64,000 nt of DNA from an uncultured Bacteroidales bacterium (GCA_902800215.1 CADCDS010000007.1:4010-68009), one strand, 5' to 3'. Numbered from the stretch's first letter, positions 14,796-63,347 are shown. Program-made: numbers and translations. The notes: generated by a model not told the origin, from the sequence alone.

Positions 14796-14835
14796 AATTG
14801 TTAAATTGTTAAGCCGTTAAATTGTTAACGATTTA
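14796..14835. repeat. octamer micro-array, 5 units (AATTGTTA AATTGTTA AGCCGTTA AATTGTTA ACGATTTA)
   Basis: Fills the OmpA-stop to YebC-start spacer. The last unit contains the OmpA TAA (14833-14835, minus strand). Confidence 0.9.
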
Positions 14836-17427
14836 CTCCGCAGGAGTAGGATCGGCATGATCGAGGATGGTCTCATAATGTACTTCCTCGAAGGTGATCT
14901 TGAACTGTACACGACGGTTCTTCTGACGACCCTGTTTGGTAGTGTTCGGCTCAATCGGTTGATCCTGTCCGTAACCGATAGCGGTCATTCGCTCTGCTTC
15001 CACACCCTTGTTGATCAGGTAGTTACGCACAGCGTCTGCACGGTCTTGTGACAGTTTCAAGTTCGATTCCGGTTTACCTACGTTATCCGTATGACCTTGT
15101 ACCTCGATGATATAATTCGGGTTATCGAGGAAGGTCTGAGCGATCTGATCCATCAGCGGATAAGACTTCGGCTTGATGGTCGATTTACCGGTTTCGAACT
15201 CAATACCCTGCATCGCTTTCTCCAGCAGTTTACGAACTTCGCGTTTAATCTCCGGACAGCCCTTGTTTGCACGGATACCCGGTACGTTCGGACACTCATC
15301 CTCGTAATCCATCACGCCATCACCATCGCTGTCCAGGTCACAACCCTTGGCATCTACGTGACCGATAGCCTCTTTCTTCGTATCCGGACACTCGTCCAGG
15401 TAGTCAGGTACACCGTCGCCGTCGGTATCCAACGGACAGCCCTTCTCGTCGATCTTACCATATGCGGCTGCCGGTGTGTTCGGACACTCGTCCATGTAAT
15501 CCATCACGCCGTCACCGTCGCTATCCAACGGACAGCCTTTCTCGTCGATCTTACCATATGCGGCTTCCGGAGTGTTCGGACAGTCGTCCAAGTAATCAGG
15601 TACACCGTCGCCGTCGCTATCTAACGGACAGCCTTTCTCATCGATCTTACCATATGCAGCTTCCGGAGTGTTCGGACACTCGTCGATATAGTCTTCTACA
15701 CCGTCGCCGTCGGTATCCAGTGCACAACCGTTCTCGTCTATGAAATGGATAGCCGCTGCCGGCGTTCCCGGACAATGATCCAGGTAATCAGGTACACCGT
15801 CATGGTCCTCATCCAACGGACATCCGACGCTGTCCACGGCTACACCACGCGGCGTCTCCGGACACTGATCCAGCTTATCCCATACGCCGTCTTTATCCTT
15901 GTCGCGGCGGTTTGATCCCCAACAGATGGAGAAGCCCAACGCTACGTTTACCATCTTTGCCTTGTCGGGGATGACATAGCGTTTACCGCCCTTACCGTCA
16001 TTCATACCGGCGTAACTCGTCGGGATATAATCCAAGGCCAGCGTCAGGTTGATACCGTCGTACGGCATGAAACTCAAACCGGCACCGATATTACTGTACT
16101 TACCGTTGTTGAGCAGCGAGTAGGACAGCGCAATGTTAAACCAGTTCACCGGACGGAAGGCCGCACCGATGGTCACCTCTTCATATAAACGTGCGTTGTA
16201 CAGGCGGGTAGCGGAAACGATACCTACGCCTACGCGGTTATCCCAGAAATTGGCATCCAGACCGATGTTCAGACGGGCGGAAGTCATGCGTGCAAAACCG
16301 CGACCTCCGTTATCGCCCATCTTCACGCCGTTGAGCAGACCCATCAGACGCGATTGAACGGTGTCCATCAGAATCTCCGTCGAGAAATTACCGTCGGCAT
16401 CGCGGTAAGCCGGGTCGTTATAGTCGATATGACCGGCGCCCTCAAACGTCGTGTCCACCGTGCAGGTGAAGCGGTTTGCATGACTCCAGTAGATGAATCC
16501 CAGGTCCGTGATCGCAGCACTGATCTGCAGGTTCTCGATCGGCTTGTACGTGATACCGAAATCCAAAGCAGCTCCGTAACCCGAAGGTCTCACAAGCCCT
16601 TTCACCAACGCCGGTACATCCGAACGGTTGATCAGACTATCTTGGTTAAACGAACCGTCTTTGAAGCCGTCCACGATCTGGTTGATGTTCTTGCCGTTGA
16701 TGTATTGGCTCAGATAAGCTAAGTTCACCGGCGCCGCTACATCCAAGCGCATCGTGCCGTTGATATCCCAAGCCTCGGTGTTGGCATCGATCTTCAAGTC
16801 ACGGCTGTCCAAACCGGCGTAAGCTGTTCCCAACAGGAATTTTAACTTACCGCCGACCGTCCATTTCTCGTTGATCTTATGACTGTAACCGGCACCTATC
16901 TCGGTATATACCGACCCGCCGGCACTGATACCGCCCAGGTCGATCGTGTTGATACCGCCCGTCAGGTCCTTCATACCGCCGTCGAAGACAAAGTCAAAAA
17001 TCGACTTCGGCATGGTCGCACCTACCGATGCACGCTCGTTGATGCCGATGGTCAGGAAGCCGTTCTCCTTGATGCGGAATCCCATGTTCAACAGACCTAA
17101 CGTGGTCTCGCCGTTCATCAGCGTCATCGATCGTATCTGACGCAGGAACTTCGCCTTGTCTGCATTCGGATGCAGCGGTGTGATCGTCTTGCCCGTTACG
17201 GGATCGACAAAGAAGATATCCTGAATCGTTAAGGAGTTATCCCCTATACCGTACGACATCCAGCCTAACGGACTGAAGTTGATAAAACCTCTGCTCACCG
17301 GTTGGAAAGCCGGGTTGATGGTATGACGCATAGGTGCGTTCTCCAGGAAATAGAGCGTCGTCACCTGCTGTGCACTCGCACTCAGCGTGATCATGGCCAC
17401 AAGGGCTGCAAATAGAATCTTTTTCAT
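14833..17427 (-). CDS. outer-membrane protein: N-terminal beta-barrel-like domain, about 7 thrombospondin type-3 Ca-binding repeats, and a C-terminal OmpA peptidoglycan-binding domain
   Basis: Signal peptide ..LSASAQQ. Repeated DxDxDGVxDYxDxCP units. OmpA_C motifs FETGKSTI, VQGHTDNVG, LSQDRADAV and NRRVQF. Confidence 0.85.
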   Translation of the reverse strand: MKKILFAALVAMITLSASAQQVTTLYFLENAPMRHTINPAFQPVSRGFINFSPLGWMSYGIGDNSLTIQDIFFVDPVTGKTITPLHPNADKAKFLRQIRSMTLMNGETTLGLLNMGFRIKENGFLTIGINERASVGATMPKSIFDFVFDGGMKDLTGGINTIDLGGISAGGSVYTEIGAGYSHKINEKWTVGGKLKFLLGTAYAGLDSRDLKIDANTEAWDINGTMRLDVAAPVNLAYLSQYINGKNINQIVDGFKDGSFNQDSLINRSDVPALVKGLVRPSGYGAALDFGITYKPIENLQISAAITDLGFIYWSHANRFTCTVDTTFEGAGHIDYNDPAYRDADGNFSTEILMDTVQSRLMGLLNGVKMGDNGGRGFARMTSARLNIGLDANFWDNRVGVGIVSATRLYNARLYEEVTIGAAFRPVNWFNIALSYSLLNNGKYSNIGAGLSFMPYDGINLTLALDYIPTSYAGMNDGKGGKRYVIPDKAKMVNVALGFSICWGSNRRDKDKDGVWDKLDQCPETPRGVAVDSVGCPLDEDHDGVPDYLDHCPGTPAAAIHFIDENGCALDTDGDGVEDYIDECPNTPEAAYGKIDEKGCPLDSDGDGVPDYLDDCPNTPEAAYGKIDEKGCPLDSDGDGVMDYMDECPNTPAAAYGKIDEKGCPLDTDGDGVPDYLDECPDTKKEAIGHVDAKGCDLDSDGDGVMDYEDECPNVPGIRANKGCPEIKREVRKLLEKAMQGIEFETGKSTIKPKSYPLMDQIAQTFLDNPNYIIEVQGHTDNVGKPESNLKLSQDRADAVRNYLINKGVEAERMTAIGYGQDQPIEPNTTKQGRQKNRRVQFKITFEEVHYETILDHADPTPAE
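15420..15720. repeat. three near-identical 96-nt (32-aa) tandem copies within the TSP3 repeat region of the OmpA-family gene
   Basis: The anchor TACCATATGC recurs at 15456, 15552 and 15648. Each copy encodes ..DGDGVxDYxDxCPNTPxAAYGKIDEKGCPLD.. The wider TSP3 region spans about 15250-15905. Confidence 0.9.
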
Positions 17428-17440
17428 CGTTCAGCCCTCC

Positions 17441-62083: not shown

Positions 62084-63278
62084 CTTCAAAGAAGGAAAGT
62101 TCGTCATCGTAGTGGACGATGAGGACCGCGAGAATGAAGGCGATTTCATCATTGCGGCCGAGAAGATCACACCGGAGAAAGTGAACTTCATGCTAAAGCA
62201 TGGACGCGGTGTGCTGTGCTGTCCGATTACGGAACAGCGCTGCGCTGAGTTAGACCTGATGCATCAGGTAGCGAACAATACCTCGATGTTAGGTACCCCG
62301 TTCACCGTCACGGTGGATAAACTCGAAGGCTGTACCACCGGTGTCTCGGCTGCCGATCGTGCCGCTACCATTCTGGCACTCGCAGATCCCAACTCCAAAC
62401 CGGAGACCTTTGGTCGTCCGGGACATATCAATCCGCTCTATGCCAAGGCTGGCGGTGTACTGCAACGCGCAGGACATACCGAAGCCGGTGTCGATCTGGC
62501 ACGCCTGGCAGGGCTGCAACCCGCGGCTGCACTCATCGAGATCATGAATACCGATGGAACGATGGCGCGTATGCCCCAGTTGCAAGAAGTGGCACGTGAG
62601 TTTGACCTCAAGATCATTACGATAAAAGATTTAATCGATTATCGATTAAATAAAGGCGAAAGGCTAATGGCGAAGGGCGAAAGGTCGCTGGTAGAACGCG
62701 GTGAGACGGTGTTCCTGCCTACAGCTAACGGGGAGTTTATGTTAACGCCTTTCCGGGATCTGACAACGGGTCTGGAGCATGTGGTGCTCACCAAAGGCGA
62801 GTGGAAAGAGGATGAACCCGTTCTTTGTCGGGTGCATTCCAGTTGTATGACCGGCGATATCTTCGGTTCTCAGCGCTGTGAGTGCGGTGAGCAGCTCAAC
62901 AAAGCGATGCAGATGATCCAGACCGAAGGAAAGGGTATCATCGTCTATATGAATCAGGAAGGTCGCGGTATAGGCCTTATGAATAAGATACGCGCGTATA
63001 AGCTGCAGGAGCAGGGAGACGACACCGTGGAGGCGAATGTGCATCTCGGTTTCCGGCCCGATGAACGCGATTATGGCGTCGGTGCACAGATCCTTCGGGA
63101 GATGGGAGCCCATAAACTGCGGTTGATGACCAATAATCCCGTCAAACGCGTCGGATTAGAGAGTTACGGCATCGAAATCATTGAAAATGTGCCGATTGAG
63201 ATTGCTCCGAATCGTTGGAACGAACGCTATATGCGGACAAAAAAAGAAAAAATGCACCACGATTTGAAACTCGTGTAA
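62049..63278 (+). CDS. ribBA: bifunctional 3,4-dihydroxy-2-butanone-4-phosphate synthase / GTP cyclohydrolase II
   Basis: Start placed at [10 protein letters not shown]. Has the DHBP synthase motif [12 protein letters not shown] and the GCH II zinc cysteines [20 protein letters not shown]. Overlaps the preceding gene by 35 nt. Confidence 0.93.
62652..62686. repeat. heptamer micro-array, 5 units (AAAGGCG AAAGGCT AATGGCG AAGGGCG AAAGGTC), in-frame in ribBA
   Basis: Encodes ..[15 protein letters not shown].. at the junction between the DHBP synthase and GTP cyclohydrolase II halves. Confidence 0.9.
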
Positions 63279-63307
63279 AAGTTTGGCACGGGATTTGTAG
63301 AGAGTAG

Positions 63308-63347
63308 GTATCGGGATACCGGTGTAACGGGATACCGGGATACCGAA
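63308..63347. repeat. octamer micro-array, 5 units (GTATCGGG ATACCGGT GTAACGGG ATACCGGG ATACCGAA)
   Basis: Lies between the ribBA stop (63276-63278) and the next ATG (63370). Confidence 0.85.

Follow-up and report, generated by a model that had tools for sequence, protein, structure and literature searches.

What process sets short tandem runs of a 7- or 8-nt word between neighbouring genes, and do such runs serve the genes that they separate? The question is raised by a 64,000-nt stretch of DNA (hereafter the window; GCA_902800215.1, CADCDS010000007.1:4010-68009) from an uncultured Bacteroidales bacterium whose SerC is up to 96% identical to that of rumen Paludibacteraceae metagenome-assembled genomes. 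A first-pass annotation, made from the sequence alone, had reported such arrays at 14 intergenic sites between positions 14796 and 63347 (all positions are those of the whole window). We propose, with a probability of about 0.6, that the arrays are hepta- and octanucleotide simple-sequence repeats (SSRs), a Bacteroidales counterpart of long SSRs and of the short tandemly repeated repetitive (STRR) sequences of cyanobacteria, and that they were made by slippage, were filtered by selection and play no part in serving translation.

Tandem Repeats Finder (TRF), run on the window for arrays of period 7 and 8, recovered arrays of about four to six copies (28-41 nt) at nearly all of the reported coordinates, plus further ones. 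With at least 3.5 copies there were 15 arrays of period 7 and five of period 8, 20 in total, compared with means of 0.00 and 0.01 in 100 dinucleotide shuffles and of 0.05 and 0.09 in shuffles of 60-nt blocks that kept local composition; at periods 4, 5, 9, 10 and 12 the window held no array of at least 3.5 copies. Self-identity at lag 7 or 8 exceeded that of shuffles at 13 of the 14 reported sites (p ≤ 0.004), and the words given for the sites matched a direct reading of the sequence. The remaining site, an 18-nt spacer on the minus strand (38375-38398), had lag-7 and lag-8 identities of 0.41 and 0.38 (shuffle p = 0.68), was absent from the TRF output and is not counted as an array. The arrays are non-random and, like long SSRs, consist of head-to-tail units in excess over chance; they are degenerate rather than perfect (matches of 73-96% by TRF), and most are A/T-rich.

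A rumen scaffold in ENA has the same sequence as the window. In a second assembly (ERZ27280671), from another sample and 99.8-99.96% identical, every heptamer and octamer array was present unchanged. Outside a TSP-3 repeat region (15667-15784), where the two assemblies diverge, they differ only by one hexamer unit at 58500. Since the independent assembly has the arrays unchanged, they are real and not artefacts of assembly. The idea that the arrays are chance matches or assembly artefacts, which would suit 38375-38398, a site indistinguishable from chance, is refuted for the other 13 sites by the nearly empty shuffles, by the second assembly and by homologous arrays in many relatives, and its overall probability is negligible. 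At 58500-58537 the window has a perfect hexamer array (CAGTAA x6.3) that begins on the stop of the gene 56478..58505; the independent assembly (L081) has one unit fewer.

Turnover of the arrays was followed in about 2 Mb of loci from relatives (labelled L001 and so on), including alignments of orthologous junctions as the first-pass annotation had advised. L087, which is about 95% identical to the window, has two extra units (+14 nt) at 21117, and both L087 and L149 carry three extra units (+21 nt) of a GCGGTTA array, in frame, at 23993. In the window this short heptamer array (peptide RLAVTDEGLRVA, in RlmD upstream of site 1, 23960-24000) lies below the TRF threshold. Between serC and serA, the window, L006, L008, L044 and L079 have a tight junction (TAATTATG), while L001, L005, L011, L012, L013 and L039 have arrays of about 18-36 nt with differing words. 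L001, L004, L006 and L079 have a homologue of the octamer array at 28363, which has fewer units in all but L001; the same junction in L003 and L008 has no such array. Most relatives have a gap of only 1-20 nt at the 30057 junction and an overlapping ATGA at the 32178 junction. Thus arrays are born and lost at orthologous junctions among species, gain and lose units as wholes, and change inside open reading frames (ORFs) in steps that preserve the frame; copy-number change by whole units between relatives is also what slippage gives in long SSRs. Of the two speculative readings offered in the first-pass annotation, the one that took the arrays for traces of slippage or of small insertions is borne out by the whole-unit differences between relatives of about 95% identity, by the same junctions with or without an array, and by the in-frame arrays in ORFs. 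Moreover, the first unit of the L039 array at serC|serA takes in the last codons and the stop of serC, suggesting local seeding. At the subtilase site of L149 a flanking CGAAACG adjoins a CGAAAGG array; the test for a local seed was suggestive there and in L039, and not decisive elsewhere.

The arrays had been described as confined to operon junctions. However, nine arrays of the same type, which had escaped notice, lie in frame inside ORFs of the window. On the minus strand, a PIF1/UvrD-like helicase ORF has sense-strand GGAGATT x4.7 at 20127-20159 (peptide IGDWKLEIGD) and GGGTTAC x4.9 at 20220-20261 (peptide RGYGLSVTGYGLT), RlmD has sense-strand GGAGATT x5 at 23565-23599 (site 1), ATTGGAG x4.6 at 23292-23323 (site 2, EDWKLEIGD) and GGGTTAC x4.3 at 23031-23060 (site 3, DGLPVTGEGLQ), and LysRS has GGTTACG x4.3, again in sense, at 53479-53508 before its OB-fold domain (EVTGDGLQVTG). 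On the plus strand, CAGCCAA x4 lies at 29900-29927 near the C-terminus of a carboxylase-domain ORF (28412..30058), CAAACAG/CAGCCAA x5.9 at 49554-49594 in a type IX secretion system plug-domain ORF, and AAAGGCG x4.7 at 62652-62684 in RibBA, between its two Pfam domains. By word, the helicase and RlmD have both the GGAGATT type (two arrays of it in RlmD) and GGGTTAC, which LysRS also has, and CAGCCAA is found in two proteins. ORF arrays share both length and words with junction arrays.

In alignments of 120 RlmD and 120 LysRS homologues the array positions are indel hot spots with short repetitive peptides, and length variants of seven residues (21 nt) occur among the homologues of both. In the DNA of 80 loci, RlmD site 2 has no array in the more distant relatives; in every closer one it has four complete units and an incomplete one, with the words ATTGGAG, ATTGAAG, ATCACAA, ATTTCAA, ATCACCA, ATCAGCC, GTCAAGA and ATTAAAA. 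RlmD site 1 has GGAGATT heptamers in the window and L087; in L088 and L149, where RlmD has 94-96% amino-acid identity to that of the window, GAGTTAAC octamers take their place. The LysRS region before the OB-fold domain varies greatly in content and length among orthologues. That the LysRS array is an insertion was settled with a set of close homologues, an alignment to the PDB being insufficient for this variable N-terminal region.

On a gene map built from ORFs, Pfam matches and gene calls on matching contigs, intergenic DNA makes up 5.7% of the window. Of 21 arrays with at least three copies, 12 are intergenic and nine are in frame inside ORFs, a preference for intergenic DNA that is also seen in long SSRs. 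The placement between the stop codon of one gene and the start of the next holds at ten of the 14 reported sites (14796, 22552, 25813, 28363, 30057, 32178, 37048, 39881, 52050 and 60561), all between co-oriented genes, and the cdd, serA, lysS and gpsA calls on which the given examples relied fit Pfam. On the minus strand, the octamer AATTGTTA (plus-strand reading; TRF period 8, 4.1 copies; lag-8 identity 0.69, p<0.0005) fills at 14796-14835 the 42-nt spacer between genes 14071..14790 and 14833..17427; mixed heptamers of TTGGAGA and TTTGATA types (22552-22592) fill the 21 nt that separate the rlmD stop from the subtilase start and reach into the last rlmD codons; TAATGGC/AAAGGCT (sense, x4.7; 37048-37083) fills the spacer between nucleoside symporter and ABC-2 permease genes; the octamer CGTTAAAC (sense, x4.9; 39881-39921) spans the 25-nt pheT/prfC spacer and overlaps both gene ends; and a near-perfect AAATATC array (plus-strand reading, x5.6; 52047-52086) covers the DNA between the lysS stop (52080-52082) and a point 3 nt ahead of the gpsA start (52043). 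On the plus strand, a composite of ATTGGAG x2 and then ATTTTAA x3 (25813-25850) makes up the entire 37-nt spacer 25813|25851; the partly palindromic octamer CGTCATGA/CGACATAA x5 (28363-28404) lies within the 51-nt spacer 28360|28412; GATTTAA x4.9 (30057-30091) starts at the TGA stop of 28412..30058 and leaves 7 nt free before the serC start; the octamer CGTCATGA/CGACATGA x4-5 (32178-32216) leads from the serA stop to the next gene and contains its ATG (32206); and AATTGGA/ATTGGAG x4.7 (60560-60595) joins the cdd stop to the ATG of a LptF/G-family gene. Of the operon gaps in the window that measure 21-60 nt, about 12 in number, arrays fill ten.

At three further sites the array is genuine but the junction is not. 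GGAGATT x4 (minus strand, sense; 21116-21147) overlaps the 3' end of the subtilase gene 21133..22551 (its last codons and stop) and continues into a convergent spacer that faces the signal recognition particle (SRP) RNA gene. A degenerate AATGGCT/AAAGGTT array (plus strand; 35590-35626) begins on the stop of an M3 peptidase gene and is followed by a terminator-like hairpin, i.e., it is a 3' tail. The strongly self-complementary octamer GGGATACC x4.2 (plus strand; 63308-63347) sits in mid-position within a 115-nt spacer, with 30 nt between it and the ribBA stop and about 46 nt between it and the next start, and is no stop-to-start filler.

The arrays had also been said to be separate from the promoters in divergent spacers, and this stood: none of the six divergent spacers of the window carries a reported array or a TRF array of at least three copies. 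The Bacteroidetes promoter motif TTTG-N17-23-TAnnTTTG matched 14 times in the window against 1.07 expected, mostly in or beside non-coding stretches upstream of genes, several divergent spacers included (e.g., 10563-10594, 24088-24119 and 42515-42546). Among the relatives, co-oriented spacers had the highest array density, at 1.33 per kb, followed by convergent (0.47) and divergent (0.32) spacers, with coding sequence lowest at 0.09; of those co-oriented gaps that measured 21-50 nt, about 30% had an array, and 157 of 360 arrays (~44%) lay inside called ORFs. In the first 80 loci plus the window, period 7 was the commonest (202 arrays, vs 95 of period 8 and 30 of period 6), and such arrays also occur in Bacteroides species.

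The unit-wise gain and loss, the birth and death of arrays at the same junction, the frame-preserving steps in ORFs and the depletion at promoters therefore point to a mutational origin by slippage combined with a filter of selection. Replication slippage or local template switching would start the arrays and alter them in whole-unit steps. Mismatch repair probably misses loops of 7-8 nt, which would let the changes persist and may also explain the unit size. Selection would then set which arrays survive, and the least constrained transcribed DNA would be tight operon junctions, 3' tails and, provided that the frame is kept, tolerant segments of proteins; from promoters and most coding sequence the arrays would be purged. 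At junctions they would widen tight contacts into spacers of about 30-40 nt, and mid-sized operon spacers would thus be array-made. The arrays themselves would probably have no function.

The same placement could instead mean that junction arrays are selected RNA elements, either spacers that set re-initiation between cistrons, or uncouple it, in a translation system without Shine-Dalgarno (SD) sequences or periodic sites for a protein that binds single-stranded RNA, such as cold-shock or S1-like proteins. The roughly fourfold higher density in co-oriented than in divergent spacers, the filling of most mid-sized gaps and the repeated origin of arrays at one junction in different species are what such a role would predict. 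Moreover, 108 junction arrays in the relatives lay at a median of 0 nt from the stop and 6 nt from the start, about half of them coming to within 10 nt of both the stop and the start, and a similar proposal has been made for TAACTGA repeats upstream of start codons (PMC4679880). On the other hand, ORFs hold close to half of the arrays, of equal length and with equal words, the sense-strand composition of junction arrays is near that of array-less spacers, and we found no common word and no SD-like placement. Folding was compared with shuffles of each array's own sequence: the mean z was -1.3, and five arrays, through palindromic words, reached z -2.6 to -4.1. Because arrays lie in ORFs (nine of the 21 in the window) and in 3' tails, vary in presence among close relatives and are on average more structured than shuffles, a translational role is not supported, and we regard selected RNA elements as improbable. 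The unstructured re-initiation spacers suggested in the first-pass annotation are rejected on the folding result, and its statement that the arrays lack dyad symmetry does not hold generally.

Several narrower identities were also tried. An SD-like role of the GGAG in ATTGGAG arrays is rejected because the ATG does not lie at a consistent distance from it (4 nt at 60561, ~33 nt at 25813). As had been stated, the arrays are not terminators, nor are they palindromes of the repetitive extragenic type: most fold weakly, and the five self-pairing ones have neither a T run nor a shared consensus. They are equally no CRISPR (clustered regularly interspaced short palindromic repeat) arrays, which have repeats of at least ~23 nt with unique spacers, since the units here are 7-8 nt and contiguous. 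Contingency SSRs for phase variation do not fit either, as the arrays are degenerate and identical across assemblies, ORF arrays keep the frame and divergent promoter spacers are empty. A scan of the window with Rfam at gathering thresholds returned only the SRP RNA and one tRNA, and no family overlapped an array.

Against slippage as the whole explanation weigh several observations on length, words and exchange: i) The lengths of period-7 arrays peak sharply at 31-35 nt (131 arrays), with a drop at 36-40 nt (24 arrays), so that the constant architecture with a variable word noted in the window holds more sharply than had been claimed, and a simple birth-and-death process by slippage does not obviously predict such a mode; ii) Non-allelic pairs of arrays had a word in common in 21% of cases within loci vs 6.6% between loci, a value reached by none of 2000 label permutations, and different RlmD sites had a common word in 30% of pairs from the same genome and 6.4% from different genomes; iii) Whole arrays were exchanged for arrays of unrelated words between genomes of about 95% identity, which makes purely local slippage insufficient; iv) Slippage gives no reason for a unit of 7 nt in preference to 6 or 9. 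In L149, a segment of the subtilase gene is swapped for an AAAGGCG-type array. In the RlmD of L103 the words of the three sites are closely related to one another (AATCACC twice, AATTACC at the third). A doubling model (7 to 14 to 28 nt) was tried for the mode near 33 nt and rejected, as period-14/16 substructure is present but the expected 8-unit class was not seen.

These features suggest, as an alternative that we hold to be possible but rather unlikely, a dedicated or semi-mobile process that copies arrays of about 33 nt with genome-specific words from site to site (by ectopic template switching, array conversion or an activity of S23p/Avd-like proteins), the arrays then forming a dispersed repeat family. 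Besides the length mode, the within-genome sharing of words and the whole-array swaps, it would account for GGAGATT at seven window sites, always in sense orientation, and for GGGTTAC at non-orthologous sites of ten genomes, different LysRS sites included. GGGTTAC and AAAGGCT occur at three window sites each, and such recurrence of one word at many unlinked loci, in the window and in relatives, is like that of STRR families. However, 142 distinct word classes among 288 arrays mean that no single family exists, neither conserved flanks nor target duplications were seen, unit-wise slippage is observed directly, and some arrays (L039) look locally seeded. The canonical STRR words are not among the words recovered here, although no direct search for them was made.

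Genes of the S23p family (PF05635), which encode four-helix-bundle proteins, bear on the same alternative. All seven S23p contexts examined, Tenacibaculum among them, have flanking heptamer arrays, in six as inverted pairs (L068 11070-11511, L078 11069-11610, L007 12641-13106, L174 1450-1909, L182 1432-1915 and L190 1461-1881); the seventh (L167 1879-1938) has a downstream array only. The words are AATTACG-like or AATTTTT-like, and around S23p genes in operon spacers the arrays are about 30 nt long, with AATTACG/AATTAGG upstream and CGTAATT/TGAATTA downstream. Strains with identical S23p proteins have between 4.9 and 8.9 copies in these arrays, and in L167-L173 an S23p gene with a heptamer array occupies the junction orthologous to window 37048|37076. 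In Coxiella, the 23S intervening sequence (IVS) with an S23p ORF carries tandem GACAGAT heptamers, of strain-variable copy number, in a 28-bp RNase III stem, and a Xanthomonas homologue of S23p/Avd-like proteins is cited there as a solved homopentamer (PMC4990558). Yet the window lacks an S23p gene as well as any reverse transcriptase or transposase (tblastn found no S23p homologue there, and so no IVS-like cassette), and the words flanking S23p genes are unlike most window words. The length mode, the word sharing and the S23p link thus leave a little room for a copying or writing process. In a more specific form, which we consider doubtful, a Bacteroidota process possibly tied to S23p/Avd would write or copy genome-specific arrays of about five heptamers (~33 nt) into transcribed DNA, loops of housekeeping enzymes included; one subunit of a homopentamer per heptamer would then give five units. 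If this were true, these arrays and the cyanobacterial STRRs would be products or substrates of a protein family of unknown function.

Other repeats and RNA genes were met along the way. A small Bacteroidales SRP RNA gene (21002-21109, plus strand; 108 bits) lies inside a 321-nt gap that the first-pass annotation had taken for an operon spacer, and the 98-nt segment beside it (20901-20999) is present in the window and L088 and absent from L087 and L149. A tRNA gene (48267-48339, minus strand) overlaps the 5' end of the ORF called 46941..48302, the start of which is therefore probably further in. Right after the stop of an OmpH-like gene stands a perfect 23-nt direct repeat (AGACCGCTGCGCTGATAGAATAT x2.2, 26489-26538), followed by two short heptamer doublets (26569-26596); in the 370-nt spacer before 58876 are adjacent period-11 arrays, CCACCTGGTCT x2.5 and CAATGGATGCT x4.3 (58579-58666). 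Among the relatives, a hairpin element of about 75 nt (TATGAAGGTTCGTGCTAGTCGAGTGTAAGC...GCTTACAC..CTCGACGACGCCGAAGCTCC) is found in the serC|serA spacer of L002 and L004 and before serC in L011 and L044, and with its different junctions by genome it looks like a miniature inverted-repeat transposable element. Hairpins in which both arms are heptamer arrays (the same word inverted, 20-100 nt apart) occur at serC|serA in L070, L055 and L067, in L052 (19404-19501) and in L068 (6253-6343).

To our knowledge, heptamer repeats have been noted in bacteria for decades with no accepted origin or role, and this lineage offers an unusually clean view of them. Here arrays explain nearly all mid-sized operon spacers of the window, are found also in LysRS, RlmD and RibBA, and turn over among close relatives. 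For annotation, this means that repeat dynamics in these genomes largely produce both the lengths of spacers and the short low-complexity inserts. The mode near 33 nt, the sharing of words within genomes and the link to S23p make array generation directly testable.

Among known systems, Rickettsia palindromic elements are about 100-150 nt long, have one consensus and lie in frame in protein genes. They are alike as short repeats tolerated in frame in housekeeping proteins, and differ in being palindromic and not tandem heptamers. Closer are the long SSRs of prokaryotes (units of 5-11 nt; Mrazek, Guo & Shah 2007), of which heptamers are described in two later papers (PMC4679880, PMC4692102) as the most abundant class, with polymerase slippage proposed. 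As far as those descriptions go, the likeness lies in over-represented, mostly intergenic tandem heptamers whose copy number varies between relatives, while the arrays here differ in the many words side by side in one genome, in their sharp length mode of about 33 nt and in that nearly half of them lie in frame in ORFs. Literature searches, which covered the 2007 study through the two later papers, gave no report of these arrays in Bacteroidales. Direct repeats of TAACTGA, known from Beggiatoaceae, cyanobacteria and five Bacteroidetes including Paludibacter propionicigenes (PMC4679880), are likewise heptamers in 2-6 copies a few nt upstream of start codons, some inside ORFs, but that system has one word where the window uses many; the window has no tandem and only two single copies of TAACTGA, which sets its arrays apart from that family. 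The GGGAATC repeats of Xanthomonas and the GGGGA(T/C)T repeats of Nostoc are G-rich and quadruplex-capable, unlike the mostly A/T-rich arrays here (PMC4692102). With the Coxiella-type 23S IVS (PMC4990558) the relatives share S23p genes bracketed by inverted heptamer arrays of about 30 nt, whereas in the window each array stands alone as a direct repeat, in mRNA spacers and ORFs and not in rRNA stems. The STRR sequences of Calothrix and Nostoc (cited in PMC4692102) match in their tandem heptamers at many loci, their genome-typical word families and their lack of a known function; here the phylum is another one, the words are more numerous and different, and the arrays are short (4-5 units) and concentrated at operon junctions. 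The arrays of this genome, whose host is a member of the Paludibacteraceae and not a cyanobacterium, are therefore an analogue of the STRR sequences and not a member of them.

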